NCBI GenBank assembly: GCA_947475545.1
Contig: CANJLL010000001.1
Coordinates: 755,734-819,733 of the forward strand
DNA length: 64,000 bases
DNA from: Chloroflexota bacterium
GTDB lineage: Bacteria > Chloroflexota > Limnocylindria > Limnocylindrales > CSP1-4
Reading direction: 5' to 3'
In this document: positions 20,025 to 42,564 of the stretch, in pieces
How the letters are laid out: the number at the start of each line of letters is the position of its first letter
Numbering within the stretch: position 1 is the first letter of the stretch
Program-made: the position numbers and the translations under genes
Notes under the pieces: model-generated
Databases searched by the model: none
What the model was told of the DNA's origin: nothing
The model's input: the letters and a program-made list of their open reading frames with translations, nothing else

Positions 20025-21368
20025 CTACGGCGTCCGCGTGATCGCTGCCAGCTCCGCGTGCAGTGCGTCCGTCACGTGGTCCAGCCCTCGGTCTACCCAC
20101 CACGCCGGGACCTCGTTGACCACCAGCCTGGCCCCGCCGAGGGCCGCCAGCGCACCGGCAATCTGGCCAACATTCGCGCTGAACACGCCGACCCCTAGCC
20201 CACTGGCCACCTCGCCCACGGCCCGGATGGCCACTGCGAGGTCGTCGTACGGCCAGAGGCAGACCGTGGGCCCAACCGCATCAACGCGGCAGATCGCCAT
20301 GTCGATGCGTGCGTCGACCAGCATCGTGGTCCCCAGGACGTTCTTCTCGCGGCCAGCCGGGAAGAGCGTCGTCGCTCCGGCGGCCACTGCCTCGCGGACC
20401 AGCGCCTCCGCACGATCTGCCGACTCGCGGTCGATCATCGGCCCCAGGTGCGTCTCCTCCTGACCGGGATCGCCCAGCTCCAGGGCCTCCAGCCGGTCCA
20501 TGAGCAGATCGGTGAAGCGGTCCCAGGCCCCGCGCGCCACGTGGACGCGCCGGACGGCGAGACCCGACTGGCCTTCGAACTCGAAGGCGCCCACCACGAC
20601 GCGGTCAGCGGCGAGGTCCAGGTCAGCGTCGTCGTGGACGATGACATCGACCGTCCCGCCGGGCTCCAGGGTGACACGGGCGTTCGGAGCCGCCGGCCCA
20701 ATTCGGTGCCCGACCGCCGCCGAACCGGTGAAGGTGATCGCCCGGACTCGCTCGTCCGACAGGGCGGCCAGGACATCCTCGTCGGTCGCGGTGACGACGG
20801 AGACCGCCTCGGCCGGCCAGCCGGCGTCGCGGATCAGCCAGGCCAGCTGGAGGGCGGGGGTGGGTGCGTCACCGGGGGGCTGCAGGACGATGGCACTCCC
20901 CGCGGCGATGGCGGCGGCCAACTTGACGGCAGCCGTCGCCAGCGGGGCGCCCAGTGCGGCGATAGCCACGACGGGGCCGAGTGGGGTCCGATCGGCGATC
21001 GGCGCCAGAGCCTCCGCCGCCGCGGCGGCGAAGGCGGCCGACGACCAGTCGACTTCGGCCCGCGCCGCGCGAATCGTCTTGCCAGCCTGCAGCGTGATGG
21101 TCCGGGCCATCGTCTCGTGCTCCTGGGCGATTCGGCGGCTCACGGTCTGGAGGACCCGCACCCGATCCTCACCGGATGTCCGTCGCGTCGCGTCGAAGGA
21201 CGACGCGGCTGCGGCGAGCGCATCGCGGATGTCCTGGGGGCCGGCCCCGGCGACCTCGGCGACCACCTTCCCGCTATATGGGCTGCGGATCGTCAGGACG
21301 TCGTCGGTCAGGCGCCAGGACCCGGCGACGGGGATGCCCGCCACGGATCGGTCGTCGGTCTCGGCCAT
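20025..21368 (-). CDS. Aldehyde dehydrogenase-superfamily protein with atypical active-site motifs
   Basis: ALDH-like layout (FTGSAAVGH, TLEPGG, GDP...GPMI). The conserved GQxC cysteine region reads FEFEGQSGLA, and the PWNFP-like motif is degenerate. Start MAETDD shares 1 nt with the IclR stop. Confidence 0.75.
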   Translation of the reverse strand: MAETDDRSVAGIPVAGSWRLTDDVLTIRSPYSGKVVAEVAGAGPQDIRDALAAAASSFDATRRTSGEDRVRVLQTVSRRIAQEHETMARTITLQAGKTIRAARAEVDWSSAAFAAAAAEALAPIADRTPLGPVVAIAALGAPLATAAVKLAAAIAAGSAIVLQPPGDAPTPALQLAWLIRDAGWPAEAVSVVTATDEDVLAALSDERVRAITFTGSAAVGHRIGPAAPNARVTLEPGGTVDVIVHDDADLDLAADRVVVGAFEFEGQSGLAVRRVHVARGAWDRFTDLLMDRLEALELGDPGQEETHLGPMIDRESADRAEALVREAVAAGATTLFPAGREKNVLGTTMLVDARIDMAICRVDAVGPTVCLWPYDDLAVAIRAVGEVASGLGVGVFSANVGQIAGALAALGGARLVVNEVPAWWVDRGLDHVTDALHAELAAITRTP

Positions 21369-22159
21369 CAGTGGGCCGCCACAAGGCCAAGCGCGCGGGC
21401 CACCTCTGCGGCGGCCGCCATGGTCAGCGCCACGAAGCGCCGCTGCGCTTCGGCGGAATGCCGCGAGAGCGGACTCGCGATCCCCAGGGCCGCGATCGCG
21501 CGCGATTCGGGGTCCAGGATGGGCGCGGCAACGCCCCACGCGCCGCTGTCGGTCTCCTCGGCGCTGAACGCGAAGCCCGCCTCGCGGATCCGGGCAAGCT
21601 CGGCCTGGAGGCGGGGCAGGTCCGTGAAGGTGTTGCGCGCCAGCGACGGGAGCCCGGAGCGGCTGGCCAACGCCTCGACCTCGTCCGAGCGGAACCAGGC
21701 CAGGAGCACCTTGGACGATGCCCCAGCGTGGAGCGGCGTCTGCTCCCCCACTTCCAGGTGGAGGCGGAGGTCATGGCGGCTCTCGATCCGCTCGATGCAC
21801 ACCGCGCGGTCACGCGCGTCGTTGACCACCGTGAGGACCACGGTCTCGCCGGTCTCCTCCGCGAGCCGCCGCATGATGGGGTCGGCGACCTGGCGGATGG
21901 GCAGGCTGGAGGCCGCGCGCCGACCAAGATCGATGGCGCCGTAGCCCAGTCGATACTTCTTGGAGCCGGGGTCCTGGGCGAGCAGGCCATGGCGGCGCAG
22001 TACGGTCACGATCCGGTGGAGCGTGGAGACGGGCAGCCCGGCGACTTCGGACAGCTCCTGGAGCCCCCACTCGGGACGGCCGGTCGTGAACAGGTCGAGG
22101 ACCTTGAGCGTCTTCTCCAGGGCTTTCAGGATTCGTGTCCTCCTATTGGCCCGGGCCAA
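21368..22159 (-). CDS. IclR-family transcriptional regulator
   Basis: N-terminal wHTH (LKALEKTLKVLDLF ... LSEVAGLPVSTLHRIV) and a C-terminal IclR effector domain. The start is uncertain. AGGAGG (22139-22144 on the reverse strand) is followed by ATC or CTG rather than a canonical start. An in-frame TTG lies inside the palindrome TTGGCCCGGGCCAA (22146-22159). Confidence 0.75.
   Translation of the reverse strand: MARANRRTRILKALEKTLKVLDLFTTGRPEWGLQELSEVAGLPVSTLHRIVTVLRRHGLLAQDPGSKKYRLGYGAIDLGRRAASSLPIRQVADPIMRRLAEETGETVVLTVVNDARDRAVCIERIESRHDLRLHLEVGEQTPLHAGASSKVLLAWFRSDEVEALASRSGLPSLARNTFTDLPRLQAELARIREAGFAFSAEETDSGAWGVAAPILDPESRAIAALGIASPLSRHSAEAQRRFVALTMAAAAEVARALGLVAAH
22146..22159. promoter_or_regulatory. 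Perfect 14-bp palindrome TTGGCCCGGGCCAA directly upstream of the IclR RBS (candidate operator)
   Basis: Read from the sequence. Its position is consistent with autoregulation. Confidence 0.35.
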
Positions 22160-22457
22160 CAAGTGGGCGAGCGCCGGTCGGGATGATGGCGGGGCGGGCG
22201 GATTTGGAAATCGGCCTCCACGTGTTGGAGTCGGCGCCCAGCGCAGCATACGCCGACGCGCGGCCCCATCAGGCAGACGGGCGGACCATGTGGCGGTTCC
22301 GCGGCAGGACGGGGTGATCGGGCGCCGGCCGGCGACGGTACGACACCGCCCGGCGGCCCGGCGGTGGGGCCAGGGCGCGACGTCCCGTGGCCTGCCAACC
22401 CCCCCCGCAGTCGAGGACCGGCGGCGACCTCCGCGGCCAGCCGCCCGGACCCCAGGC

Positions 22458-23108
22458 TCAGTCCTCGGGGACCAGCCCGGCCTCCGCGGCGACCTCCGCG
22501 GCGGCCTTGTGCTCCAGGACCTTGTCCGCCAGCGACGCCGCCCCGCCCTGCCAGCGCTTGAAGAGGTCGGCGGGCAGCTCCAGGCGCAGCTGGTCGCAGA
22601 TGCGCTGCACCGTCTGGTCGATGATGTCTTCCACCGACTTGGGCCGGTGGTAGAAGGCCGGCATCGGCGGGACGATGATCGCGCCCATCTCCGCCACCTG
22701 GAGCATGGCCCGGAGGTGGCCGATGTGGAGGGGCGTCTCGCGCGGCGCCAGGATCAGCGTCCGGTGCTCCTTGAGGGTCACGTCCGCGGCCCTGGTCAGC
22801 AGGTTGTCGCTGATCGAGTAGGCAATGCCCGTCAGCGTGCGCATGGAGCACGGCAGGACGACCATCGCGTCGACCTTGAACGAGCCCGACGACGGCTTCG
22901 CGGCGATGTCGCCGTAGCGATGCGTCTCGGTGGCCAGGGCCTCCACCTGGGCGGACGTCCAATCCGTCTCCAGCTGGATGGTGGCCCGCCCGGCAGGCGT
23001 GATGACCAGGTGGGTCTCGACCTCGGGAAGGTCGTGCAGGACCTGGAGGAGCCGGATCCCATAGATGGCGCCCGTGGCGCCCGAGATCCCGACGACGATA
23101 CGGCGCAT
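22458..23108 (-). CDS. ubiX: UbiX/Pad1-family flavin prenyltransferase (prFMN synthase)
   Basis: MRRIVVGISGATGAIYGIRLL ... and the full UbiX fold, ~216 aa. GGGAGA RBS upstream. Confidence 0.9.
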   Translation of the reverse strand: MRRIVVGISGATGAIYGIRLLQVLHDLPEVETHLVITPAGRATIQLETDWTSAQVEALATETHRYGDIAAKPSSGSFKVDAMVVLPCSMRTLTGIAYSISDNLLTRAADVTLKEHRTLILAPRETPLHIGHLRAMLQVAEMGAIIVPPMPAFYHRPKSVEDIIDQTVQRICDQLRLELPADLFKRWQGGAASLADKVLEHKAAAEVAAEAGLVPED

Positions 23109-23199
23109 GGTGTCTCCCACTAGCCTGCCGGGCCGGGACGGGGCTCGCCCTGACCACTGGCTCCTCGGCGGCGGACCGAACCGGAGACCCGTCCCTGGG

Positions 23200-23655
23200 T
23201 CAAACCCGGGGCAGGGTGGCCTTGCCGCGGAGGCATTCGAAGAACTGGTTCAGCATCATTGTCGCAACCCCGCCGAGGAGCCGCTGGGCGACCCCGGCGA
23301 TCAAGCCACCAACCTGCCCGTCGCCCACCACGACAACGTCGCATTCGTCGGGCGCGTCGGCCGCCGGCGTGATGGTAACCGCTGCCTCGCCCTTGATGAA
23401 GCCGGGGCCGCCCTTGCCGTGGACGAGCATCCGGAACGCCTCCGGCTCCCGCCGATCCACCAGCTGGACCTGGCCCTTGTAGACGCCCTTCACCGCGCCC
23501 ACGCCCACCTTGACGGTGGCGACGTACTGGTCAGGACCGATCGCCTCCAGCCGTTCGCAGCCCGGGATGCAGCCCGCCAGGACCTCCGGGTCCAGCAGCA
23601 TCGCGAAGACCGTCTCGCGCGGCGCCGGGAAGCGAAACGTGCCTTCGACTCGCAT
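23200..23655 (-). CDS. CoxG-family SRPBCC protein (carbon monoxide dehydrogenase subunit G-like)
   Basis: MRVEGTFRFPAPRETVFAMLLDPEVLAGCIPGCERLE... is the characteristic CoxG N-terminus. It lies downstream of ubiX on the same strand. Confidence 0.75.
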   Translation of the reverse strand: MRVEGTFRFPAPRETVFAMLLDPEVLAGCIPGCERLEAIGPDQYVATVKVGVGAVKGVYKGQVQLVDRREPEAFRMLVHGKGGPGFIKGEAAVTITPAADAPDECDVVVVGDGQVGGLIAGVAQRLLGGVATMMLNQFFECLRGKATLPRV

Positions 23656-23692
23656 GTCGTGTGCTCCTGCGCTTGGGGGGTCAAGTGTGCCT

Positions 23693-23780
23693 GACCGACG
23701 GGAGTTGGACCGGCCCGTCGGCCAGGGTGCTCTCTGGACGACGGCCAACTCGTTCCCGTATTATGGAACCCAGTTTCCAT
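23693..23780. promoter_or_regulatory. Divergent regulatory region: 10-bp imperfect inverted repeat plus AT-rich island with TATTAT and ATGGAA-N6-TTCCAT
   Basis: GACCGACGGG (23693-23702) pairs with CCCGTCGGCC (23714-23723). The AT-rich stretch 23756-23785 is exceptional for a 70% GC sequence. It sits between the ubiX-coxG operon and the catabolic operon. Confidence 0.4.
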
Positions 23781-23922
23781 TTTCGCCGCCGAAGTGGGCC
23801 GCTGGGCGCTCGCTCGAGCCCGCACTCGATCGCATCCATGATCTCGCGCACCGGCCTGGCCCACCCGCCCTCCATGGCCCACACCCACCGCTCAACCAGC
23901 CAACGAAAGGACGAGCCCGACC

Positions 23923-24816
23923 GTGCTCCGACCGCGACCGGACCTGGAGATCCTCAAGGGCGCCATCGACATGCACGCCCACACCCACCCGGCGCTCTTC
24001 AAGCGCCCGCTGGATGACGCGGACCTGGCCCAGCTGGCCCAGGAGTACGGCATGCGTGGATTCGTGATCAAGGATCACGACTCGTCGTCCACGGGGCGAG
24101 CCTACCACGTGGGCAAGGCCTTCCCGGACATGAGCATCAACGGGGCCATCGTCCTCAACCGGTCCGTTGGCGGGATCAACCCGCACGTGGTCCAGGCGGC
24201 GATCCACCATGGCGCCAAGGTCATCTGGATGCCCACCAACCACAGCAAATGGCATTCCGAGTACTTCAAGATGTCCGACTACCCGCAGCTGGGGCGGCCC
24301 AAAAAGCAGCTGCCTGGGGCCGGCGTGACCATCCTGGGCGAGGACGGGAAGATCACCCAGGAGGCCCTGACCATCCTGGACCTGGTGGCCGAGGCCGACG
24401 TCACCATCGCCAGCGCCCACCTGCACCTGGACGAGACGCGGATCCTCCAGGCCGAGGCCAACAAGCGCGGAATCAAGAAGTTCCTGGTGACCCACGTGAA
24501 CTGGGCGCTGACCAAGTACGACCTGACCATCCAGCAGGAGCTGCTGGACAACGGCGCGTACCTGGAATACGTGGCCATCTCGTGCGTCTCGCCGACGTTC
24601 TACGAGCAGGACCCGGTGGAGCTGGCCGGCTGGATCAACGCGAACAACGGCCGGAAGCTGATCCTCACCTCCGACCTGGGCCAGTACTCCGCCGCCCCCC
24701 ACCCCGAGGGCCTGCGGATGATCATCGCCACGCTGCTGGACTACGGGGTCTCGCGCGACATGCTCACGCTGATGACCCAGGTCCATCCCGCCGAGCTGCT
24801 CAACCTGTCCGTCTAG
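23923..24816 (+). CDS. Amidohydrolase-superfamily-like TIM-barrel protein of unknown function
   Basis: N-terminal DMHAHTHP (HxH metal motif) and a later KDHD. ~297 aa. First gene of the operon. Confidence 0.55.
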   Translation: MLRPRPDLEILKGAIDMHAHTHPALFKRPLDDADLAQLAQEYGMRGFVIKDHDSSSTGRAYHVGKAFPDMSINGAIVLNRSVGGINPHVVQAAIHHGAKVIWMPTNHSKWHSEYFKMSDYPQLGRPKKQLPGAGVTILGEDGKITQEALTILDLVAEADVTIASAHLHLDETRILQAEANKRGIKKFLVTHVNWALTKYDLTIQQELLDNGAYLEYVAISCVSPTFYEQDPVELAGWINANNGRKLILTSDLGQYSAAPHPEGLRMIIATLLDYGVSRDMLTLMTQVHPAELLNLSV

Positions 24817-24844
24817 CGCCCCCGGCCACAGGAGGGAACGACCC

Positions 24845-25687
24845 ATGTCACTCGCCATCCGCGCCTCCGACACGGAGCGCCTCAACCTCGACCGCGGCAG
24901 CCGCCGGCTGGAAGGCAAGGTCGTCCTGATCACGGGCGGCGCCAAGGGGATGGGCGGCACCATCGCCGAGCTCTTCGCCCACGAGGGTGCCTCGCTCGCG
25001 CTGGCCGCCCGAAGTGTTGAGGACCTCGACGCCGAGGCGGCCCGGATCCGCGCCGACCTGCCAGGCCTGGCGTCCATCTCGGTCGGGGTCGACGTCACCA
25101 ACGGCGATTCGTGCCAGGCCATGGCCCAGGCCGTCCTGGACCGCTACGGCCGAATCGACGTCCTGGTCAACACCGCCGGGGTCATCGGCCCCATCGAGAC
25201 GGCCGCCCAGAACGTCAGCGAGGAGGAGTGGGAGCACGTCCTGGGCGTCAACGCCAAGGGCACGTTCCTGTCCATCAAGGCCGCCCTCCCGTCGATGATC
25301 GCGGCCAAGTCCGGCAAGATCGTGAACATCGCCGGCACCTCCGGCCTGCGCGGCTACAAGAACCGCGTCTCCTACTCCGCCTCCAAGTGGGCCGTCCGCG
25401 GCATCACCCGGACAGTCGCCCTGGAGGTTGGCGTCCACAACATCAACTGCAACTGCGTGGCGCCGGGGCCCATCTACGGCGACCGGATGGACAAGATCAT
25501 CCGGGGCAAGGCGGCGACCAAGGGCATCAGCTACGAGCAGGTCTTCAACGATTACCTGTCCGAGCAGGCCATCAAACGCTTCACGTCGGCCGTGGACATC
25601 GCCTACGCTTGCCTCTACCTCGCCAGCGACGAATCGCGGCAGGTGACGGGCCAGTGCCTGACGGTGGACGGCGGCTGGGACGTCTAG
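24845..25687 (+). CDS. SDR-family oxidoreductase
   Basis: GKVVLITGGAKGMG, NTAG, YSASK. Confidence 0.85.
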   Translation: MSLAIRASDTERLNLDRGSRRLEGKVVLITGGAKGMGGTIAELFAHEGASLALAARSVEDLDAEAARIRADLPGLASISVGVDVTNGDSCQAMAQAVLDRYGRIDVLVNTAGVIGPIETAAQNVSEEEWEHVLGVNAKGTFLSIKAALPSMIAAKSGKIVNIAGTSGLRGYKNRVSYSASKWAVRGITRTVALEVGVHNINCNCVAPGPIYGDRMDKIIRGKAATKGISYEQVFNDYLSEQAIKRFTSAVDIAYACLYLASDESRQVTGQCLTVDGGWDV

Positions 25688-25811
25688 CGCAACGGAGCCA
25701 ACCTCGAGGTTCGGCGGGCGGACCGGCGGCAAGGCCGGCCCCCACCGCCTGGCCGGCGACCGATCCGCGGGTCGTCGGTGATCATCCGGTGAGGCGGTCG
25801 GGAGGTTCACG

Positions 25812-28268
25812 TTGAAGCAGGTCGGACGCCGCGTCACCGGGCTGACCAACACCCAGCTGGCCGCCGGCAAGGGCACGTTCGTCAACGACGTCGTCCTCCC
25901 GGACATGGCCTTCCTCGCCTTCCTGCGCAGCCCGTACGCCCACGCCCGGATCCGGTCCGTTGACATCTCCGCGGCCATGGCGCGCCCCGGCGTCATCAAG
26001 GTCCTCACGGGTGAGGACGCCTACCGCGACCTGCGCCCCATCCCGGAGGCCTGGAACACCCGTGAGATTGGCGCCAAGGGCGTCCTCTGGTACCCCATCG
26101 TCAAGGACCGCGTCCGCTACGTGGGCGAGGTGGTCGCGGCCGTGGTGGCCGAGGACCGCTGGACCGCCGCCGCGGCCCTGGACGACATCGAGGTGGACTA
26201 CGAGGAGCTGCCGGTCGTCACGGACCCCATCAAGGCGATGGAGCCGGGTGCCGACCTGGTGGAACCGGCCTGGGGCGACAACCTGCTGATCACCCGCGAC
26301 TGGATCGCCGGCGACGTGGACGCCGCCCTGGCCGGCGCGGACCGCGTCGTGACCGGGACCGTCCGCTCCAACCGGATCACCGGTGTCTCCATCGAGGGAC
26401 GTGGCTGCGTCGCCCAGTGGGACGCGTTCGCGCGGAAGCTGACCTTCTGGGAATCCACCCAGAACCCGCACCCGCTGCGCAGCTTCCTGGCCGAGACGCT
26501 CAACATGTCGGAGAACTCGATCCACGTGATCCAGCCGCACGTCGGCGGCGGATTCGGGCTCAAGCAGCCGCCCTTCCAGGAGGAGCCGGTCGTGGCCCAC
26601 GCCGCCATGGTCACCGGTCGGCCGGTGAAGTGGATCGAGGAGCGCGCCGAGAACTTCATGGCCACGGGCCACTCGCGCGATACCCGCTTCGAGTACACCG
26701 TGGGCTTCAACGCCGATGGCCGGGTCCACGGGCTGCGGATCAAGGTCATCGCCGATGTGGGGGCGCCCACGGCGCTCCTGGGCTGGGGCCAGTCGTTTGT
26801 CACCGGCTACAGCCTGCCGGGCGGCTACGACATCCCCGACACCAACGTCCAGCTGTACGTCGTGGTCACCAACAAGTGCCCGTGGAACGCCTACCGCGGG
26901 TTCGGGAAGGACGCCCAGTCGTTCGTCATGGACCGGATCATGGACCACGTGGCGCGCGAGACCGGCCTCGACCGGACGGCGATCCGCTACGCCAACTTCA
27001 TCCGCCCGGACGACTTCCCCCACTCCCAGCCGTCTGGCGCGATCCTGGACTCCGGCAACTACCAGGGCGCGCTCGACAAGCTGCTCAAGAAGATCGACTA
27101 CGCCGGGTTCCGCGCGCTGCAGGCGCAGGCCGCGGCCGAGGGGCGTCGGATCGGACTGGGCCTGGGCCAGGAGCTGACGCCCGAGGGCTGCGCCATGCCT
27201 GGCGCGCTGATGATCTCCGCCTACGACGGTGCCACGGTGCGGGTCGCACCCTCCGGCGAGGTCACCATCCTGACCGGCGTCACCTCGCCCGGCTGCGGGA
27301 ACGAGACCGCCTTTGCCCAGATCGCGGCGGACGTCCTCGGCTGCAAGCTGGAGACCATCCGGGTGATCCAGGGCGACACGGAGCTGTGCCCGTACGGCCT
27401 GGGCAACTACTCGTCGCGCGGCACCATGTACGGCGGCTCCGCCACCCAGCTCGCGGCGCAGGACCTCCGCAACAAGCTGGCAGAGGTGGCCGCATCCATG
27501 CTGGAGGCCGCCCCGGCGGACCTCGAAGCCGCGGACGGCACCTTCTTCGTGCAGGGCAGCCCGGATCGCTCGGTCGCCTTCAACGCGGTCGTCAACCAAG
27601 TCTACCGACACACCTTCGGCAAGCACGCCGAAGGTGTGGAACCGGGCCTGGAGTCCACCCGCTACTTCCGGATGGGCAACATCTACCACCAGCCAGAGAC
27701 CCAGGGCCGCTTCTCCAACTACCCGGCCTGGCCCTTTGGGAGCAGCGCCGTGGTGGTGGAGGTGGATCCCCAGACCGGGATGGTCAAGGTGCTGGAGTAC
27801 ACGCTGGTCGAGGACGCCGGGACCGTGATCAACCCGCTCCTGGTGGACGCCAACCTGCATGGAGCCATCACCCAGGGCATCGGCTCCGCGATGTACGAGA
27901 ACATCTCGTACGACGAGAACGGCCAGCTCCAGACGGCCACGCTGATGGACTACACCATCCCCACGGCCATCGAGATGCCGATGTTCTCCATCGAGCACCA
28001 GGAGACGCCCTCGCCGTTCACGCCGCTGGGCATGAAGGGCGCCGGCGAATCGGGCCTGGGCTCCACGCTCGGCGCGCTGTGCGGCGCGATCGAGGATGCC
28101 TTCCCCGAGCTTGACCTGCGGATCACTGACCTGCCGCTCACCCCCAACCGGGTCTGGCAGTCGCTCCGGACCGCACCCCGAAAGGATGGGTCCGGCTTCG
28201 GCCCGTCACCGTCCGCCACGGGTGCTGCCCGGCCCGCCGTCGCCGGCGCCGTGGAGGCCATCCGATGA
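25812..28268 (+). CDS. Xanthine dehydrogenase-family molybdopterin-binding large subunit
   Basis: TTG start 6 nt after GGAGG (25801-25805). HVGGGFG, NAYRGFGKDAQ loop, GAGESG. ~818 aa. Confidence 0.9.
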   Translation: MKQVGRRVTGLTNTQLAAGKGTFVNDVVLPDMAFLAFLRSPYAHARIRSVDISAAMARPGVIKVLTGEDAYRDLRPIPEAWNTREIGAKGVLWYPIVKDRVRYVGEVVAAVVAEDRWTAAAALDDIEVDYEELPVVTDPIKAMEPGADLVEPAWGDNLLITRDWIAGDVDAALAGADRVVTGTVRSNRITGVSIEGRGCVAQWDAFARKLTFWESTQNPHPLRSFLAETLNMSENSIHVIQPHVGGGFGLKQPPFQEEPVVAHAAMVTGRPVKWIEERAENFMATGHSRDTRFEYTVGFNADGRVHGLRIKVIADVGAPTALLGWGQSFVTGYSLPGGYDIPDTNVQLYVVVTNKCPWNAYRGFGKDAQSFVMDRIMDHVARETGLDRTAIRYANFIRPDDFPHSQPSGAILDSGNYQGALDKLLKKIDYAGFRALQAQAAAEGRRIGLGLGQELTPEGCAMPGALMISAYDGATVRVAPSGEVTILTGVTSPGCGNETAFAQIAADVLGCKLETIRVIQGDTELCPYGLGNYSSRGTMYGGSATQLAAQDLRNKLAEVAASMLEAAPADLEAADGTFFVQGSPDRSVAFNAVVNQVYRHTFGKHAEGVEPGLESTRYFRMGNIYHQPETQGRFSNYPAWPFGSSAVVVEVDPQTGMVKVLEYTLVEDAGTVINPLLVDANLHGAITQGIGSAMYENISYDENGQLQTATLMDYTIPTAIEMPMFSIEHQETPSPFTPLGMKGAGESGLGSTLGALCGAIEDAFPELDLRITDLPLTPNRVWQSLRTAPRKDGSGFGPSPSATGAARPAVAGAVEAIR

Positions 28269-29137
28269 TCACCGCCGAGCTCCAGTTCCACCGGCCCGGG
28301 TCCGTCGCTGAGGCCCTGGAGCTGCTGGCCCGCCACGGCGACGACGCCAAGATCCTGGGTGGTGGCATGAGCCTGGTCCCCACCATGACCCTGGGCCTCG
28401 CCCGCCCCGAGATCGTCATCTCCCTCAACCACATCACCGAGCTCCGCGTCATCGCGGAGGACGCGGCCGCAGGCACGCTCCGGATCGGCGGGACGGCGCG
28501 CCACAACGACGTGATCGCCTCGCCCCTGGTCGCGCGTCATGCCCCGCTCCTCGCCGATGCGGCGCGCCACATCGGCGACATGCAGGTCCGCAACCGCGGC
28601 ACCATCGGCGGCAGCGTGGCCCACGCGGATCCCGCGGCGGACTACCTCCCGGCCCTGGTCGCGCTGGACGCGTCCGTGGTGGTCCGCAGCACGCGCGGCG
28701 AGCGGGTCATCCCAGCCGCGGAGTTCTTCATCGACGTCATGGCCACGGCCCTGGCGCCCGACGAGTTGATCGCCGAAATCCGTGTCCCGTCGCAGGGCAC
28801 CGCGCGGGGTGCCTATCGGCGCCTCACCCGGGTCGAGGGCTCCTTCGCCATCGTCAACGCCGCGGCCCTGGTCCGTCCGGCCGGCTCGGGCGCCTCGGTG
28901 GTAGCCATTGGCGGGGTCGCCGGGGCGCCAGTCGCGGTGGACGCCAGCACGGCCGTCTCGGCCGGCCTCACGGGCTCCGCCCTGGCGGCCTTCGAGGATG
29001 CGGTTCGCGCCGCCTGCCCCGAGCCCTTCGAGGATCTCAACGGCGACGCGGTCTACCGCCGCGAGATGGCCGTCATCCACGCCCGCCGCGCGCTGCTTGC
29101 GGCTGCGGGCCGCGCAGCCGCCGGCGTGACCGTCTGA
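28265..29137 (+). CDS. FAD-binding subunit of molybdenum hydroxylase (CoxM/XdhB-like)
   Basis: ATGA overlap with the L gene. ILGGGMSLVP and RNRGTIGGSVAHADPA motifs. Confidence 0.85.
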   Translation: MITAELQFHRPGSVAEALELLARHGDDAKILGGGMSLVPTMTLGLARPEIVISLNHITELRVIAEDAAAGTLRIGGTARHNDVIASPLVARHAPLLADAARHIGDMQVRNRGTIGGSVAHADPAADYLPALVALDASVVVRSTRGERVIPAAEFFIDVMATALAPDELIAEIRVPSQGTARGAYRRLTRVEGSFAIVNAAALVRPAGSGASVVAIGGVAGAPVAVDASTAVSAGLTGSALAAFEDAVRAACPEPFEDLNGDAVYRREMAVIHARRALLAAAGRAAAGVTV

Positions 29138-29179
29138 CCCGCTGACCCGCGCGACCCCACGAGCGCAGGAGACCCCCTG

Positions 29180-29719
29180 ATGCAGACCACCATCAAGCTC
29201 ACCGTCAACGGCCGGGCGCGGACCGTCGAGGTTGACTCGCGGATGATCCTCGCGGACATGCTCCGCGACCAGCTCCGCCTGACCGGCACGCACATCGGCT
29301 GCGGCACCGGCAACTGTGGCGCGTGCACGGTCATGCTCGACGGCCGGACGGTGAAGTCGTGCTGCGTCCTGGCGGCCGACGCGGACGGCGCCGACGTCCT
29401 CACCGTGGAGGGCCTGTACACCTCCCCGGACGACCTCCACCCCATCCAGCAGGCGTTCATCGCCAACCAGGGGCTCCAGTGCGGCTACTGCACCCCCGGG
29501 ATGATCCTCTCCGCCAAGCAGCTGCTGGACGCCAACCCCGATCCCACGGAGGACGAGATCCGGCACGGCATCTCGGGCAACCTGTGCCGCTGCACCGGCT
29601 ACCACTTCATCGTGGAGAGCATCCAGGATGCCGCCCGGGTCCTGCGCGGCGAGGCGTCGGCCCCGTCGGCCTCCATCACGGGCCTGCCGGCAAGCCCCGC
29701 GACCGACGTGGCCGGCTGA
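29180..29719 (+). CDS. (2Fe-2S)-binding subunit (CoxS/XdhC-like)
   Basis: [11 protein letters not shown] and CGYCTPG...CRCTGY cysteine clusters. Confidence 0.9.
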
Positions 29720-29778
29720 CCAACCGGGCACCAAACCCGCCTCGCCCTCCCCCACCCCGCCACGGAGCCCCCCTTCCC

Positions 29779-31203
29779 ATGGCACATGACCTCCGCAGCG
29801 CCCTCGATCTCCTCGACGCCGCCGGCGACCTGGAGACGGTCGCGCGCCCGGTGGATCGCGCCTGGGAGGTGACCGCTGTCCTGGACCGTCTCGAGCGTGA
29901 CGGGCGGTTCCCCGCGGTCCGGTACGATGCCGTCGAGGGCTTCCCCGGCTGGGCGATCGCGGGCAACCTCTTCGCCACCCGGTCCAAGATCGCCGCGTTC
30001 CTGGGCTGCGCGCCGGACCAGGTGACGGAGACTCTGGCCGCGCGCCTGGAGTCCCCGATTGACCCCATCCTCGTTTCCGGCGGTCCCGCCGCGCCGTCCC
30101 AGGAGGTGGTCCTGCTGGGCGACGACGCCACCCTGGACCGGATCCCGCTGGTCACTCACCACGAGCGGGACGCCGCGCCGTATGTCTCGCTGGGCGTGAC
30201 CATCGCCAAGGATCCCGAGACCGGCCGCCGGAACATGGGCGTCTACCGCTACATGCAGCACGGGCCTCGCTCGTTGATCCCGTCGCTCACGTCCATCGCC
30301 AACATCAGCGACCTGTTCAAGAAGGCCGAGGAGCGAGGCGTGCCCCTCGAGATCGCCATCCTCCCCGGCGTCCATCCGTTGCTCGCCCTGGCCGCCTCGT
30401 ACTCCGCCCCAACCGGCACGGACGAGCTGGCCCTGGCCGGCGGCCTCCTGGGCCGCCCCGTGGAGCTGGTCCGGGCCAGGACGCTCGACCTGGAGGTCCC
30501 GGCCGAGGCCGAGGTGGTCATCGAGGCCCGGATCATGCCCGGCGGGCGCTACCCGGAGGCGCCCTTCGCCGACATGTCGCGCTCGTACAGCCGGGTGAAG
30601 CAGGGGCCCATGACGGAGGTCTCGGCGATCACGCACCGGCGCAACCCCATCCTGCAGCTGGCCTTCTCCGGCCACCCCGACGCGACCAACATGGCCGCGG
30701 TCTGCCACGAGGTCGCCATCCTGCGGGCCACCCGCCAGGCGTCCCGTGGGATCACCGGCGTGCACGTCCCCGCCAGCGGCTACGGCTTCCACTGCTACAT
30801 CGCCATGAAGAAGCGACCCACGGTGGAGGGACGCGAACGCGGCGAGCAGATGAACGTGATGCTGGCGGCGCTGGGAGCCGTCCCGCAGATCAAGCTGATC
30901 ATCGTGGTCGACGACGACGTCGACATCTACCAGGACGAGGCCGTGCTGGGCGCCCTGGCCCGCCGGTTCCAGGTGGTGGACCCCATCACCCGCGATCAGC
31001 GGATCCTGGTCATCCCGGCCGCCAAGGGCGCGTCGTACGACCCGTCCAGCTTCCACCGCGAGTATCCCAACTCCAAGCTGCTCATCGACGCCACCATCCG
31101 GAGCGACCTGACCGACGAGCAGCGCAACAGCTTCACCGAGGCCGCCACCATCGGCGCCGACCGGATCGATCTCGCCCAATACCTGGAGGAGCGCACCCGA
31201 TGA
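29779..31203 (+). CDS. UbiD-family decarboxylase (paralog 3)
   Basis: Start [18 protein letters not shown]. Full-length UbiD fold. Its stop overlaps the next gene's start (ATGA). Confidence 0.9.
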
Positions 31204-32615
31204 GCCAGGCCGATCTCGTCATCAAGGGCGGCAAGGTCGTCAGCGAGCATGGCATCCGCGAGCAGTCGATTGCCGTCAAGGACGGGAAGATCGTCGCCGT
31301 GGGCGAGCAGGAGTCGATGCCGTCCGCCGCCCGGACGATCGATGCCGGGGGCAAGCACGTCTTCCCCGGGATCATCGACCCCCACATCCACCTGCAGACG
31401 TTCTCGAACAAGTTCGACATCAACATCAAGACCGAGTCGAAGTCCGCGGCGATCGGCGGCGTGACCACCATCATCCCCACCCTCCTCAACCGCGAGGACA
31501 ACCAGCTCTCCTTCCTGGAGCACTTCCCGTGGTGCAAGGAGGCGGTCGACAAGTACGCCACCATCGACGTGGCATTCAGCGCCGTGCTGGGCAGCACCGC
31601 CCAGATCCGCGAGATCCCCGAGATGGCCAGGCTGGGGATCAGCTCGTACAAGTTCTACATGGCCTACACCCAGGACGAGGCGAGCGTCTTCGGGATCAGC
31701 GCCATGGACGACGGCCAGGTCCTGGAGGGCCTGCGGGTCATCAAGGAGGTGGGCTACCCCGCCATGATGATGGTCCACGCCGAGAACATGACGATCATCC
31801 ACAAGCTCAAGGGCGAGTACATCGCCGCGGGCCGGGACGACCTCAAGGCGTGGACCGACGCGCGGCCCGACATCGCGGAGGAGGAGGCCACCCGGCGGGC
31901 CATCTGGTACGCCAGGGAGACCGGCAGCCGCCTGTACATCGTCCACATGACGATCGGGCGCGGCGTGCAGTGGGTCCGCGAGGCGCAGGCGCAGGGCGTG
32001 GACGTCATCGCCGAGACCTGCCCGCACTACCTGGTCCTGACCAAGTACGACAACGACAAGGTGGGCCGGCTGGGCAAGGTCAACCCCCCGCTCCGCGACC
32101 TCGAGAGCCAGGAGGCGCTCTGGGAGGGGATCCGCAACGGCGCCATCTCGTGCGTGGGCTCGGACCACTCCACCATCACGCCGCTGGCCGACAAGGTCCA
32201 GAAGGACATCTGGACAGCAGTCCCGGGCTTCCCCGGCTCCGGGATGCTCCTGCCGATCATGCTCAGCGAGGGCTACCACAAGGGCCGCGTCTCGCTGGAG
32301 AAGATCGCCTGGATCCTGTCCACCAACAACGCCCGCGTCTGGGGCCTCTACCCGGAGAAGGGCACCATCCAGGTGGGCTCGGACGCGGACTTCGCCATCG
32401 TCGACATCGATCGCAAGATGACGGTCAGCCCGGAGTACATGCAGTCCTTCGCGGACTGGGGCCTGTACGATGGCTGGGAGGTGACCGGCTGGCCGACGCA
32501 CACCATCGTGCGCGGCGAGGTGGTGATGGAGAACGGGAAGATCGTGGGTCGCGAGGGCTACGGCAAGTACATCCCGCGCTACCCGCGGTCGCGTCCCGAA
32601 GGGCCGCGCGCGTAG
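31200..32615 (+). CDS. Dihydropyrimidinase/D-hydantoinase-like cyclic amidohydrolase
   Basis: [10 protein letters not shown], carbamylated-Lys region ([10 protein letters not shown]), VHAEN, GSDHS. ~471 aa. Confidence 0.85.
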
Positions 32616-32654
32616 CAAGGGCGTGGGCCGCCCGTCGGCCCCAGTGTCAACTGG

Positions 32655-33712
32655 TCAGCCCGTCGGCGCGTCCAGCTCGCGGGCGTAGGCCGGGAAGCGG
32701 AACCGGTGATCGCGGGTGAGAATCCCGCCGTGGCCGATGCCGGACACCAAGCGCGGAGTGGGAGCCTCGCCGGTCAGCAGGCGCGGCAGCACCAGGTCGG
32801 CCGCGGTGGCCTTCGAGAACGCACCGCAGGTGGGCAGGCCCAGGATCGCCGTGCGGCCCACCCGGCCCAGCCAGAGCATTGAGCCCGGGTGCGCCGGCAC
32901 GCCCTGGCGCACCACGCGGCCGCCCAGCGCCGCCACCGCCAGGTAGAACGGGTCGGCCGGGTCCGTGCTGCCGCCGCCGGCCGTCAGGACCACCTCCGCT
33001 CGCCCGGGTCCACGGGTCAGGCGACGCAGCGCCTCGACCACCGACGCCTCGTCGTCCGCGTAGTCGATCCCCACCAGGGTTGAGCCCAGCGTCTCCACCT
33101 TGGCCCGCACGCTGGCTTCGAACCGCTCGCGCGCCAAGGCGTGGAGCGACTCCAGGACCACGGCGCCCACGCGCATTGGCTTGAAGGGCGCCACCCAGAC
33201 CAGCGGGCGCCGCGCCTCACCGGGGCCTGCCGCGATCCGCTCGCCGCGGGCGACCACGGCTTCGGCCACCACGTGGGGCGCCACCTTGGCGCTGGCCACC
33301 AGGTCGCCCGCCTTGACGATCGAACCGTCAAGAACCGTGAAGACCTCCAGCGGGTCGATCCGGTTGAGCCGCTCCAGCTGGGTCGTCCGGACGTGGACCA
33401 CGCCCGGCCAGGCGGCGCGCAGGTCCACCCGGCTCTCGTTGGGGCCATGGGTGGTGAGCCCCTCGCCGGCCACGGCGGCCGCCAGGCGCAGCGCGGCGTC
33501 GTCCTCGTGCAGGTCGCCTGGCTCCATCACCACCAGGGTCAGCAGGCCGCTCGGGAGCCCATCCGGTCCCAGGGTGACGAGCCGGTCCAGGTCCGCGGCG
33601 CTCAGGCGGCGGCCCTTGTCCCAGCGCTCGCCGTCCACGCGCACGTCGCGCGCCAGCACGGCGCCCACAGGACGCTCGAAGGGCTGGCCGGGCTGGAATC
33701 GGACGATCCGCA
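32655..33712 (-). CDS. MoeA-like molybdopterin-binding protein (MoCF-biosynthesis domain)
   Basis: C-terminal VVLTAGGGSTDPADP...GLPTCGAFSKATAADLVLPRLL resembles the MoeA/MogA cofactor-binding domain. The N-terminus is GAVLARDVRV-like. Start chosen at MRIVRF; the upstream track extension is junk. Confidence 0.5.
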
Positions 33713-33763
33713 TCTCGCCCGACAGTCTGCACGATGCCGCACCCGCCCGCAGCCGACGGCGGT

Positions 33764-34106
33764 TCAGCCGCGGCCCAGGACCACGTCGATGCCGGCCAGG
33801 ACCAACTGGAGGTTCGACGCCGACAGGCGTCCGGCTCGCTCCGTCAGCGCCGCGCGATCCAGCGTGACCAGCTGCGAGACGTTGGCCGCCGACGGCGTGG
33901 CCAGCCCGGTCGCCCGGCCCGACAGGAGCACGTTGCCCGGCGCATCGGCCCATCGGCCATTGCTCGTCAGGGCGACGCAGACCACCGTCCGAATGGTGCT
34001 GGCGTTGAAGGCATCGCCGTGGACGACGACGGGCCGACGGAACCCGTGGGCCGAAGCGGCCGGGTCGCCCAGGTCGGCCCACCAGACCTCCCCCTCCGGC
34101 GATCAC
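33764..34106 (-). pseudogene. MazF/PemK-family toxin gene with an apparent +1 frameshift near its 5' end
   Basis: The frame after the antitoxin TGA encodes SPEGEVWWADLGDPAASAHGFRRPVVVHGDAFNAS...QLVTLDRAAL... (MazF-like) but has no start codon. The GTG overlapping the antitoxin stop (GTGA) is in the +1 frame. The GGAGGGGGAGG run has five G where four would restore MIAGGEVWWADLGD.... Confidence 0.55.
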
Positions 34107-41178: not shown

Positions 41179-42435
41179 TCAGGCCCGCGCGACCTCCTCG
41201 AGCGCCCTTCCGAAGCCGTCCACGATCGCGTCCAGCTCCGCCTCCGTGATCACGAACGCCGGCGACAGCTGGATGGCGTGGCCGCGGATGCTGCGCGTCG
41301 CCACCCCGTGGCGGATGCACGCCGCCGCCACCTTGTCCGCGAGCGCCGGGTCGGCCGCCAGGAGGTCGGGCCGCAAGGCGACCGCGCCCGTCAGGCCCAC
41401 GGTGCGAATCTCGCTCACCAGCGGTGCACCCTCCAGGCGCCGGAGCGCCCGGTCCAGGATCGGCGTCATGGTTCGGACCCGCCCGATCAGGTCCTCGCGC
41501 TCGACGATGTCCAGGTTCGCCAACGCCGCGACGGCAGATGCCGCGTGTCCGCTATACGTGTAGCCGTGCTTGAAGACGCCGCCCGGCACCGGGTTGTCCC
41601 AGAATGGCGCCCGAACGCGTTTGCCCACGAGCACCCCGCCGATCGGGAGGTACCCGGATGAGACGCCCTTGGCGAAGGTCATCATGTCCGGCTGGATCCC
41701 GTACGCGATGCTGCCGAACCACTCACCCATTCGGCCAAACCCGCAGATGACCTCGTCGGCGATGAGCAGGATGTCGTGCTCGCGGCAGAGGCGGTTCACC
41801 TCCGCCCAGTAATGCGGCTCCGGGGCGATGACCCCGCCGGCCCCGATGACCGGTTCGCCGATGAACGCGGCAATCTCGTGGCCACGCTGCTCGAAGAGCG
41901 CGCCCAGGCCCTCCGTGTCACCGACGCCGACGTGGATCACCTCGTCGATGAAGGCGCCGCCGTAGCCCGCCTTGTTGCCGGGGATGCCCGCCAGCGACGT
42001 GCCCCAGCCGTGCATCCCGTGGTAGCCGTGCTCACGGGAGACGATGACCCGCTTCCCGGGCTTGCCGAGGAGGTCCCAGTAGCGGCGCGCCAGCTTGGCG
42101 GCCGTGTCCACCGCGTCGGAACCGCCGGCGCCGAAGAAGACGACCGTGTCCTCCATCGGCGAGAGGGCCGCCAGGCGGTCGGCAAGCTGGATGGTGGCTT
42201 CGGTGGCGAACGCCCCGAAGTTGGAGTAGGCGTGGAGCTGCGTCAGCTGGGCTGCGACGCGGTCGGCGATCTCCTGGCGCCCGTACCCAACGTTGCAGTA
42301 CCAGAGGGATGCGGTGGCATCCAGGTAGTCGCGGCCGTGCACGTCGGTGATGACGACGCCCTTGCCGGAGCGGATGATCAGCTCGGCGTTCGCCACGCTG
42401 TGCATGTCGGCGAACGGATGCCAGAGCGAGCCCAT
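41179..42435 (-). CDS. Class III (omega) aminotransferase, PLP-dependent
   Basis: Aspartate-aminotransferase-fold class III motifs with the FAKGVSSGYLP lysine region. ATG preceded by AGGAGG with a 5-nt spacer. Confidence 0.85.
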   Translation of the reverse strand: MGSLWHPFADMHSVANAELIIRSGKGVVITDVHGRDYLDATASLWYCNVGYGRQEIADRVAAQLTQLHAYSNFGAFATEATIQLADRLAALSPMEDTVVFFGAGGSDAVDTAAKLARRYWDLLGKPGKRVIVSREHGYHGMHGWGTSLAGIPGNKAGYGGAFIDEVIHVGVGDTEGLGALFEQRGHEIAAFIGEPVIGAGGVIAPEPHYWAEVNRLCREHDILLIADEVICGFGRMGEWFGSIAYGIQPDMMTFAKGVSSGYLPIGGVLVGKRVRAPFWDNPVPGGVFKHGYTYSGHAASAVAALANLDIVEREDLIGRVRTMTPILDRALRRLEGAPLVSEIRTVGLTGAVALRPDLLAADPALADKVAAACIRHGVATRSIRGHAIQLSPAFVITEAELDAIVDGFGRALEEVARA

Positions 42436-42564
42436 CGACACCTCCTGGACGCGACTCACGGGGCGCTCGACCTGTGGGCGGTGGCCGCGTTCTCCAGAGC
42501 GATGGTAGCGAGCCGGACGGGCGCCGTGGCGGGCGGCCGACAGGTCCACCCCCGGGCGGGAGGA

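Follow-up and report, generated by a model that had tools for sequence, protein, structure and literature searches.

We analyzed a 64,000-nt stretch of DNA from a Chloroflexota bacterium (GTDB lineage Limnocylindria; Limnocylindrales; CSP1-4; GenBank assembly GCA_947475545.1, contig CANJLL010000001.1, positions 755,734 to 819,733 of the forward strand), hereafter the window, which has a G+C content of ∼71%. It carries a cluster of nine genes that encode a UbiD-family decarboxylase of the type dependent on prenylated flavin mononucleotide (prFMN); the flavin prenyltransferase UbiX; a xanthine dehydrogenase (XDH)-family molybdenum (Mo) hydroxylase with large (L), medium (M), and small (S) subunits; a CoxG-like protein; a cyclic amidohydrolase (hereafter the amidase); a short-chain dehydrogenase/reductase (SDR); and a DUF6282 protein (Table 1). 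A first-pass annotation, made from the sequence alone, had placed these nine genes and read them as a candidate pathway for a heteroaromatic carboxylate. Profile scans of the window proteins with Pfam and NCBIfam (June 2026 models, curated cut-offs) recovered all nine at the predicted coordinates and with the predicted domains, and an independent gene caller gave the same gene coordinates on 24 public contigs that carry an identical UbiD. The cluster is genuine and conserved, apparently uncharacterized, and built on a distinct UbiD subfamily.

Table 1. Features of the cluster and of the wider window
Feature	Coordinates	Strand	Evidence or remark
Aldehyde dehydrogenase (447 aa)	20025..21368	-	PF00171; immediately downstream of the IclR gene
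IclR-family transcriptional regulator	21368..22162	-	PF09339 + PF01614
UbiX flavin prenyltransferase (makes prFMN)	22458..23108/23120	-	PF02441 3e-44; NF004685 269 bits vs. cut-off 188
CoxG-like SRPBCC protein, Mo-hydroxylase accessory	23200..23655	-	PF06240 3e-25
Divergent regulatory region, 267 nt	23656..23922	.	Promoter-like site + palindrome
DUF6282, predicted metal-dependent TIM-barrel hydrolase, amidohydrolase superfamily	23923..24816	+	PF19799 2e-61
Classical SDR	24845..25687	+	adh_short + adh_short_C2, 1e-50 to 1e-54
Mo-hydroxylase L (molybdopterin), CoxL/Qor-like	25812..28268, TTG start	+	Ald_Xan_dh_C, MoCoBD_1, MoCoBD_2
Mo-hydroxylase M (flavin adenine dinucleotide, FAD)	28265..29137	+	FAD_binding_5 4e-53, CO_deh_flav_C
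Mo-hydroxylase S (2x[2Fe-2S])	29180..29719	+	Fer2_2 1e-32, Fer2
UbiD-family prFMN decarboxylase	29779..31203	+	PF20695 (UbiD_N), PF01977, PF20696 (UbiD_C)
Cyclic amidohydrolase, hydantoinase/dihydropyrimidinase/allantoinase type, binuclear metal site	31200..32615	+	1gkr 6e-89
MoCF_biosynth-domain protein, convergent with amidase gene	32655..33713	-	PF00994
Class-III omega-aminotransferase, possible displaced cluster member	41179..42549	-	PF00202 7e-76
UbiD paralog, truncated	3-494	-
UbiD paralog, 35% identical to main UbiD	992-2386	-
Isochorismatase-family hydrolase, RutB/BiuH-like	2583-3215	-	Directly upstream of UbiD paralog 992-2386
HyuA/HyuB pair	9926-14367	+	Best NCBIfam caprolactamase and acetophenone-carboxylase subunits, below cut-off
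Lone Mo large subunit	15832-18186	-
PemK-family toxin gene + upstream 79-aa ORF	33764-34342	-	Between cluster and molybdopterin oxidoreductase
Second XDH-type set, FAD / split L / Fer2	37201-40973	-	L split: 39405-40460 and 38058-39398
Glucose-methanol-choline (GMC) oxidoreductase	61158-62771		29 kb from cluster, behind housekeeping genes

The seven forward genes are closely packed. ATGA overlaps, as predicted earlier, are present at the L/M and UbiD/amidase junctions, and the remaining gaps measure 28, 124, 42, and 59 nt. The start of UbiD is the ATG at 29779, which has GGAG ahead of it, and not the open reading frame (ORF) start at 29323. No terminator-like site was found in 22300–33000, and ubiX lies 6.7 kb upstream of ubiD, on the opposite strand of the same cluster. 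A single operon, as the first-pass annotation concluded, is plausible, with the 124-nt gap falling between the SDR and Mo L genes.

Within the divergent region, a promoter-like site at 23735–23764 on the forward strand (9 of 12 matches) was the sole sigma-70-like site found in 22300–33000. The palindrome TGGAACCCAGTTTCCA (23764–23779) directly adjoins the -10 element of this site; it occurs once in the 64 kb against 0.01 expected and is kept in a 96%-identical relative (locus L006). We take it to resemble the Escherichia coli IclR/AllR box TGGAAA-N-TTTCCA. Such a unique IclR-box-like palindrome at the divergent promoter fits control by the adjacent IclR gene, and we infer that the cluster is cotranscribed and under IclR control or repression. 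The IclR protein itself scored highest with the NCBIfam models for BhcR, PcaR, IclR, and AllR, each below cut-off, and is 41–45% identical to an IclR protein present in every related locus. At the other end of the cluster, the position of the MoCF_biosynth gene is kept on near-identical contigs of the same lineage and apparently also in L006; its product is a possible molybdenum-cofactor helper.

The Gene Set Recurs across Phyla

A scan of GTDB yielded 12 loci and one of JGI metagenomes 32 more, and these were compared using tblastn panels and public gene calls; all-against-all ORF clustering of these high-GC loci was swamped by antisense shadow ORFs, and the tblastn panels were used instead. 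The closest genome is an uncultured Chloroflexi metagenome-assembled genome (MAG), LJ_bin-2554, with cluster proteins 92–100% identical to those of the window. More broadly, the gene set recurs in ∼40 loci of metagenomes or MAGs, which represent at least four lineages, the hosts being Chloroflexia, Limnocylindria, Actinomycetes, Acidimicrobiia, and the sponge-associated Candidatus Spongiisociaceae. Identities to these relatives covary (59–87% for UbiD, 54–80% for Mo L, and 65–79% for the amidase), and the co-occurring genes comprise an SDR–CN_hydrolase–UbiD row, the Mo L, M, and S genes, the amidase, IclR, an aldehyde dehydrogenase (Aldedh), and an omega-aminotransferase (omega-AT). Linkage of these genes is far beyond chance, and the earlier view that they form one conserved functional unit agrees with the presence of the same set in the 12 genome and 32 metagenome loci. 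It could be objected that the genes are accidental neighbors within a catabolic island rather than one pathway, as the island (1–42 kb of the window) holds many unrelated oxidoreductases and hydrolases and gene order varies by lineage. However, these genes have remained linked despite rearrangements in ∼40 loci from different phyla, several pairs being translationally coupled, and we regard an accidental grouping as very improbable.

The consensus of the relatives is larger than the window cluster and consists of two blocks, Aldedh–IclR–SDR–CN_hydrolase–UbiD and CoxG–MoL–MoM–MoS–(UbiX)–omega-AT–amidase. Optional members are DUF6282, a TRZ/ATZ-type deaminase-like amidohydrolase, a zinc-dependent alcohol dehydrogenase (Zn-ADH), a VanA-like Rieske oxygenase, the maturation genes CoxD/CoxE, ATP-binding cassette (ABC) transporters whose binding proteins are of the NMT1 or Bmp type, DUF1989, and a type-2 isopentenyl diphosphate (IPP) isomerase. 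In five of the loci with gene calls (L020, L022, L024, L028, and L029), the stop codon of CN_hydrolase overlaps the start of UbiD, while the two genes stand 46 nt apart in L027; in loci known from tblastn only, CN_hydrolase lies directly upstream of UbiD. The UbiD/amidase overlap is a feature of the Chloroflexota type. Beside UbiX, seven fetched loci (L027, at 4223–4696, L028, L029, L020, L038, L039, and L046) carry a 157-aa ORF without a Pfam match that is a homolog of the prFMN maturase PhdC (9e-38 to PDB 9SRG).

By tblastn, no CN_hydrolase, PhdC homolog, CoxD/E, or TRZ/ATZ gene was found in the window, nor in the 96% relative. What the window carries is a reduced form of a larger multiphylum cluster; the genes of the first-pass annotation are all there, but what it treated as a complete set is trimmed relative to the consensus. 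The window also holds a second, nonhomologous pairing of a ureido hydrolase with UbiD (992–3215, reverse strand), in which the isochorismatase-family hydrolase has RutB (ureidoacrylate amidohydrolase) and biuret amidohydrolase as its best NCBIfam matches. This RutB-like hydrolase could take the place of the carbamoylase that the main cluster lacks.

Lineages differ in what they add. In actinomycete loci, the TRZ/ATZ gene (guanine/8-oxoguanine deaminase-like) lies directly upstream of the SDR and is accompanied by an NMT1 (ThiY/THI5-family) binding protein; a 3.5-kb gap in these loci contains an unrelated tetratricopeptide repeat insertion. Sponge-type loci carry Zn-ADH and VanA-like Rieske genes beside Aldedh, and L012 has a Bmp/PnrA-type binding protein. 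In L028, an ortholog of xanthine-8-carboxylate decarboxylase (XCDC; 58–59% identity) and a DHLI-like Amidohydro_2 gene (18820–21416) lie 7 kb from the cluster, so that both UbiD types coexist, and in L017 two tandem pterin-deaminase-like genes (12603–15379), 44–46% identical to the putative pterin deaminase of an Ensifer lumazine-type cluster, directly follow UbiD. These gene associations suggest combined pterin/purine catabolic islands in sponge-associated bacteria.

Two further additions were seen in single loci or pairs of loci. Two related clusters (L028, 16315–17355; L047, ∼2653) include, near UbiX, a gene for a type-2 IPP isomerase (TIGR02151, 340 bits, above cut-off), which may supply the dimethylallyl donor for prFMN synthesis. 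Directly after the amidase of L027 is a DUF1989 gene (20544–21140; urea-amidolyase-associated/carboxyguanidine-deiminase-like), a hint that urea- or guanidine-type fragments are produced.

The UbiD Protein Belongs to a Separate Subfamily

The window UbiD passes the family model TIGR00148 (250.8 bits, cut-off 244.85), while every specific model fails. With the ubiquinone UbiD equivalog PRK10922 it scores 142 bits against a cut-off of 788, and E. coli UbiD (2idb) matches it (4e-40) over residues 104–397 only; a canonical ubiquinone UbiD was rejected, in agreement with the first-pass annotation. The closest solved structure, aligning end to end, is Pelotomaculum HmfF (PtHmfF; 6h6v, 1e-70), and identity is 35% to PtHmfF, 35–37% to XCDC orthologs, and 35% to the window paralog. 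PhdA (6da6) is distant (7e-39).

When the window UbiD was used to search 1.84 billion cluster representatives exhaustively with HMMER, its orthologs came back as one 50%-identity cluster (676 bits, 65%), with the next match at 276 bits and 38%. The nearest neighboring subfamilies, the next ten, are unnamed MAG proteins at most 42% identical; where a source is named, it is a Xanthobacteraceae or Actinomycetota MAG, with no specific function assigned. Neighbor joining placed the orthologs in a tight clade of their own, distinct from the branches of HmfF, XCDC, and the window paralog.

Catalysis by UbiD enzymes relies on an Arg and an acidic pair, the E(D)-R-E motif. All three residues are intact in the clade: across 23 orthologs, R157 (in RNxGxYR), E260, and D265 (both in EAPFAD) do not vary. 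This clade has Asp as the second acid, however, whereas it is Glu in the other 33 UbiD-family sequences compared, and the acid motif reads EAPFAD(M) here against E(G/A)P(F/Y)GE in the other aligned sequences. EAPFADM and a second motif, SGHPDATN, are signatures of the clade. We argue that this UbiD is an active prFMN decarboxylase because UbiX is encoded next to it and relatives even add a PhdC-type prFMN maturase, in agreement with the earlier reading that the divergent ubiX points to a working decarboxylase. In this respect, the cluster resembles the PhdA/PhdB/PhdC system of UbiD, UbiX, and maturase, with the differences that the PhdC homolog occurs in seven related loci and not in the window, and that the window UbiD is distant from PhdA.

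JGI/IMG labels almost all members of the clade "2,5-furandicarboxylate decarboxylase 1," and the 120 best homologs carry automatic names only. This name implies the furan pathway for 5-hydroxymethylfurfural and 2,5-furandicarboxylic acid, in which HmfF and HmfG act with the furoyl-CoA dehydrogenase HmfABC. HmfABC is a three-subunit Mo hydroxylase too, and the pairing with UbiX and the status of HmfF as best solved match would likewise be in line with such an assignment. Specificity of HmfF for furans is set by His296/297 (PMC7976604). In the window clade, this position is Ala/Thr within the invariant SGHPDATN (the Ala of DATN), and the positions of HmfF R304 and R331 are His and Gly in the window UbiD; the XCDC clade also has His at the His296/297 position. 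The acid motif differs as well (EAPFAD vs. EGPFGE). No AMP-binding (acyl-CoA synthetase) or enoyl-CoA hydratase (ECH) genes of the HmfD and HmfE type were found in the cluster or any related locus, the sole ECH gene of the window lying at 52056–52910, and the conserved partners are instead enzymes of nitrogen chemistry (amidase, carbamoylase, aminotransferase, and deaminase). HmfF identity was rejected on identity, clade, and specificity residues, and a furan pathway is extremely improbable; as first judged, the hmf genes share only some members with the cluster. Since identity to HmfF is 35% and the specificity residues are not conserved, the furandicarboxylate label is very likely a systematic overannotation of the clade. 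The picolinate and nicotinate pathways were also judged a misfit by their published gene sets. One feature, H-x-P-x-SG-x-x-FH-x-Y, is common to the window and XCDC clades only, among the sequences compared, and hints, though weakly, at an oxo-substituted substrate of similar polarity.

Partner Enzymes Point to Hydroxylation and Ring Opening

The Mo hydroxylase shows the L, M, and S domains and the C-terminal catalytic Glu motif of the XDH/CoxL family. Mo L is 66–80% identical to its orthologs in other phyla and has CoxL-like 8uem (1e-147) and quinoline 2-oxidoreductase 1t3q (4e-138) as best PDB matches. The first-pass annotation had ruled out CO as substrate on the basis of an AYRG-type loop, and indeed Mo L carries NAYRGFGK at residue 360 and a C-terminal GAGESG, with no AYRCSFR, and scores 551 bits with the CoxL equivalog TIGR02416 against a cut-off of 991; a form-I CO dehydrogenase was rejected. 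All NCBIfam equivalogs scored below cut-off on this subunit, so that no substrate-specific one passes. CoxG adjoins MoL in related loci, and the window UbiX is 49–53% identical to the UbiX proteins of lumazine-type clusters (53% for Ensifer).

The amidase matches Arthrobacter L-hydantoinase (1gkr) best among PDB entries, and alignment with 1gkr and 1k1d shows that every ligand of the binuclear metal site (HxH, a carbamylated Lys, two His, and an Asp) is present, including GSDHS. It is 65–79% identical to its orthologs and falls below cut-off with both TIGR02033 (dihydropyrimidinase/D-hydantoinase; 344 bits, cut-off 393) and TIGR03178 (allantoinase; 314 bits, cut-off 358). In relatives, the CN_hydrolase has N-carbamoylputrescine amidohydrolase, beta-alanine synthase, and D-carbamoylases as its nearest solved structures and is probably a ureido hydrolase rather than a nitrilase.

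For DUF6282, no PDB sequence match was found, and a full-text literature search returned no mention of the family. An AlphaFold (AF2) model built from 32 homologs (predicted local distance difference test, pLDDT, 85; predicted template modeling score, pTM, 0.88) matched phosphotriesterase-like lactonases, E. coli PHP, LigI, and TatD in Foldseek (probability 1.0, TM score 0.55–0.64), and H18, H20, H107, H111, H166, H191, and D251 are invariant. The modeled fold is that of a (beta/alpha)8 amidohydrolase-superfamily barrel, in which the HxH/His/His/Asp set consists of H18 and H20 at strand 1 and of H166, H191, and D251 at strands 5, 6, and 8.

The SDR passes no NCBIfam equivalog and lies immediately upstream of CN_hydrolase–UbiD in nearly all relatives with sufficient coverage. 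The window Aldedh scores highest with lactaldehyde, phosphonoacetaldehyde, and sulfoacetaldehyde dehydrogenase-like models, all below cut-off; the Aldedh–IclR adjacency is kept in relatives, but the window protein is just 32% identical to the cluster-type Aldedh, and its membership is therefore uncertain. The omega-AT candidate of the window, 9 kb from the cluster, belongs to subfamily PRK07480, as does the omega-AT adjoining the amidase in relatives, to which it is 46–49% identical. NCBIfam equivalog scores of the accessory enzymes were all below cut-off, and assignment of a substrate from their subfamilies was rejected.

Two Characterized Pathways Share the Logic of the Cluster

Our full-text search (UbiD with Mo enzymes, hydantoinase, DUF6282, orotate/barbiturate, and xanthinase) found no description of this synteny. 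The earlier statement that no characterized pathway has such a gene set does not hold at the level of pathway logic, for which there are two precedents, the lumazine/pterin pathway (PMC12391406) and the xanthinase pathway (cited in PMC12507026). The former was described in 2025 from Cupriavidus sp. LA-1, whose cluster I comprises the Mo lumazine dehydrogenase LuDH, DHLI, XCDC/UbiX, and a pterin deaminase; LuDH, the Amidohydro_2 isomerase DHLI, and the UbiD/UbiX-type XCDC convert lumazine to xanthine (PMC12391406). A GTP-binding protein (COG0523) helps DHLI and always accompanies it (PMC12391406, Doi et al. 2025).

The cluster shares with this system a three-subunit Mo hydroxylase of the xanthine oxidoreductase family, one or more amidohydrolases, and UbiD/UbiX for a nucleobase-like ring, and the best plasmid matches of the window UbiD are lumazine-type clusters of Ensifer (pT173d) and Paracoccus (p2). 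We nevertheless give hardly any credence to its being an ortholog of Cupriavidus cluster I. Identity is 35–37% for UbiD, in a separate clade, against 58–62% among true XCDC orthologs, and 33% for MoL. The DHLI Amidohydro_2 pair and the COG0523 GTPase were not found in the window by tblastn, and DUF6282 is unlike DHLI, with no BLAST match to DHLI-beta and an hhalign probability of 3%. Instead of DHLI alpha and beta, the window has a hydantoinase-type amidase, DUF6282, and an SDR, to which relatives add carbamoylase, omega-AT, and Aldedh; L028, moreover, carries both UbiD types side by side. Orthology was rejected by this protein-by-protein comparison with the Ensifer and Paracoccus clusters.

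The xanthinase pathway of Tong et al. 2023 reportedly consists of four hydrolases of different families and a prFMN-dependent decarboxylase. The clostridial purine route it concerns runs from xanthine via 4-ureido-5-imidazolecarboxylate, 4-amino-5-imidazolecarboxylate, and 4-aminoimidazole to glycine, with genes that were still unknown in 2012 (PMC3519856); they were reported in 2023, for Clostridia and Bacilli only (cited in PMC12507026). In its logic (an XDH-family enzyme, hydrolytic opening of the fused uracil ring, ureido hydrolysis, and further hydrolases), this pathway matches the conserved CN_hydrolase/UbiD/amidase coupling of our loci. Were the cluster a true ortholog of it, its function would already be known, and the enzyme classes do correspond: XDH-family enzyme, cyclic amidohydrolase, ureido hydrolase, prFMN decarboxylase, and further hydrolases. 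The hosts here, however, are Chloroflexota, Actinomycetota, and sponge symbionts as opposed to anaerobic Firmicutes, and the nearest UbiD subfamilies outside the clade come, where named, from the Xanthobacteraceae and Actinomycetota MAGs described above. In addition, no June 2026 NCBIfam model names any cluster protein, and the extra invariant SDR, Aldedh, and omega-AT would go unexplained. We consider such orthology improbable.

At the family level, a likeness to reductive pyrimidine degradation can also be drawn. The Pyd pathway with PydD/PydE uses an amidase, a beta-ureidopropionase, an omega-aminotransferase, and an SDR or aldehyde dehydrogenase, with counterparts here in the dihydropyrimidinase-like amidase, the beta-ureidopropionase-like CN_hydrolase, omega-AT, and SDR/Aldedh. 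The cluster differs in having UbiD and a Mo hydroxylase in place of dihydropyrimidine dehydrogenase, and its amidase stays below the dihydropyrimidinase cut-off. The cluster is best classed with nucleobase-type catabolic clusters that combine a Mo hydroxylase, an amidohydrolase, and UbiD/UbiX.

A Proposed Route through a Cyclic Ureide or Imide

Somewhat more likely than not, the cluster serves the catabolism of an N-heterocycle by way of a cyclic ureide or imide. Our fuller explanation, which we hold with evenly divided confidence, is that the cluster, under IclR control, serves to break down a polar nucleobase-like N-heterocycle, with a xanthinase-like order of steps favored. UbiX would make the prFMN that loads the UbiD of the new subfamily. 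The CoxL-type Mo/FAD/[2Fe-2S] hydroxylase, with CoxG, would place a water-derived oxo group beside a ring nitrogen and so make or complete a cyclic ureide or imide, which the hydantoinase/dihydropyrimidinase-type amidase would hydrolyze. In the full versions of relatives, the CN_hydrolase would then take off the carbamoyl group, while UbiD would remove a ring carboxylate; DUF6282, SDR, Aldedh, and omega-AT may handle side chains or small ring fragments. Most probably, the substrate would be a purine/pteridine-type compound that contains a fused uracil ring, or else a substituted pyrimidine. Candidates are xanthine/urate, lumazine/pterins, pterin-6-carboxylate (from folate/biopterin decay), 5-carboxyuracil, the thiamine pyrimidine, and 7-carboxy-7-deazaguanine (CDG). 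Transporters gave no guide to the choice: assigning a substrate from them was rejected, their types differing by lineage (NMT1-type ABC, Bmp, major facilitator superfamily, or none).

The sequence of steps is less certain than the chemistry. By analogy with the xanthinase pathway, we tentatively propose that the ring is hydroxylated to a dioxo form and opened, the product decarbamoylated, and an ortho-amino heteroaryl carboxylate then decarboxylated. This order is suggested because the carbamoylase–UbiD adjacency or overlap is widely conserved and is joined by the UbiD/amidase overlap in the Chloroflexota type, because the second, nonhomologous ureido hydrolase of the window precedes the UbiD paralog, and because lumazine-type, pterin-deaminase, and TRZ/ATZ genes and a gene for a Bmp/PnrA-type protein lie near the cluster in relatives. 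Ureide chemistry is favored because the nearest solved relatives of the CN_hydrolase are carbamoyl amidohydrolases.

Several points besides the transporters weigh against this proposal. The known members of the cluster family all come from uncultured organisms, the window copy is without the carbamoylase that the proposed order needs, the links to pterin genes come from two loci only, and the comparison with the xanthinase pathway is drawn on logic rather than on homology. Furthermore, a plain xanthinase-type scheme leaves the invariant SDR, the Aldedh, and the omega-AT without an evident function, and these enzymes are a better fit to side-chain oxidation before decarboxylation, which the Rieske VanA-like and Zn-ADH genes beside Aldedh in sponge-type loci also favor.

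The latter observations lead to the alternative order, in which a side chain (a heteroaromatic alcohol, amine, aldehyde, or methyl group) would be oxidized to a carboxylate by SDR/Zn-ADH, omega-AT, Aldedh, and, in some loci, Rieske enzymes, followed by UbiD, lactam or ureide formation by the Mo hydroxylase, the amidase, and the CN_hydrolase. Its candidate substrates would be 6-substituted pterins via pterin-6-carboxylate, 5-hydroxymethyl- or 5-formyl-uracil via iso-orotate, the thiamine pyrimidine HMP/AmMP, and the preQ1/CDG deazapurines. Every conserved enzyme would thereby catalyze its standard reaction type, and the window copy could run the route without a carbamoylase between steps. Also in keeping with it are the ADH_Zn–Aldedh pair and VanA-like Rieske gene beside the cluster in sponge-type loci, the TRZ/ATZ deaminase upstream of SDR with the NMT1 binding protein in actinomycete loci, and the pterin-deaminase-like genes after UbiD in L017. 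For the pterin 6-side chain, the introduction of PMC12391406 ascribes its loss to chemical reactions and describes no enzyme. On the other hand, the nearest Aldedh and omega-AT families use small aliphatics (lactaldehyde, sulfoacetaldehyde, and succinic semialdehyde dehydrogenases; beta-alanine-type omega-AT), HMP and deazapurines are trace compounds, and several candidates would be surprising as growth substrates for so widespread a cluster. The carbamoylase–UbiD translational coupling of most related loci is also left unexplained. We consider this alternative somewhat unlikely and slightly favor the xanthinase-like order over it. The decarboxylation, hydroxylation, and ring opening of the first-pass annotation, which follow this alternative order, are thus viable, but as one of two orders, since the carbamoylase–UbiD coupling fits ring opening first equally well.

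It is possible, although we would not call it probable, that the cluster encodes an undescribed nucleobase-type route centered on a new UbiD subfamily with Asp as general acid, and that this route is common among Chloroflexota, Actinomycetota, Acidimicrobiia, and sponge symbionts. Its UbiD would act on an amino- or oxo-substituted heteroaromatic carboxylate that no known UbiD accepts. One possible form would be a uricase-independent hydrolytic purine/pteridine route, another an enzymatic removal of the pterin C6 side chain via pterin-6-carboxylate. Few UbiD enzymes have known substrates, and a sharply separated subfamily with its own active-site signature and a rich gene neighborhood that is conserved is a well-defined target for a new prFMN reaction. 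Because the hosts are abundant uncultured soil and sponge-associated lineages, solving the cluster would assign recurrent "hypothetical" catabolic genes, including DUF6282, correct the 2,5-furandicarboxylate decarboxylase misannotation at JGI, and reveal how N-rich rings (purines, pterins, vitamin fragments, and modified bases) are recycled.

Other Genes of the Window

The further genes listed by the first-pass annotation (two UbiD paralogs, two Mo-hydroxylase sets, a Hyu pair, an IclR regulator, and a GMC oxidase) were all found. From their best NCBIfam matches, HyuA and HyuB would be of the ATP-dependent lactamase/carboxylase type rather than a classical hydantoinase; they are flanked by an iron-dependent alcohol dehydrogenase, SDRs, a methyltransferase, and a luciferase-like monooxygenase. 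From ∼42.5 kb on, the window contains housekeeping genes (rhomboid protease, SRAP, M16 peptidases, and carAB), and because these lie in between, the GMC enzyme is an unlikely member of the cluster and probably unrelated to it.

The lone Mo large subunit is 61% identical to a MoL (16181–18577) of the Chloroflexia locus L020, where it belongs to a MoS–MoM–(159-aa ORF)–UbiD–MoL set. Counterparts of the UbiD, FAD, and Fe-S genes of that set are absent at its position in the window, and the gene looks like a remnant or a shared-subunit arrangement. Next to the PemK-family toxin gene, the 79-aa ORF is probably the antitoxin; a ribbon-helix-helix/PemK pair also lies near the cluster in L020. The reverse-strand region 34414–40973 encodes an 878-aa molybdopterin oxidoreductase of the bis-molybdopterin guanine dinucleotide type (PhsA/ArrA/Fdh-like, below all cut-offs) and, next to it, the second XDH-type set, an arrangement that is conserved in the 96% relative.

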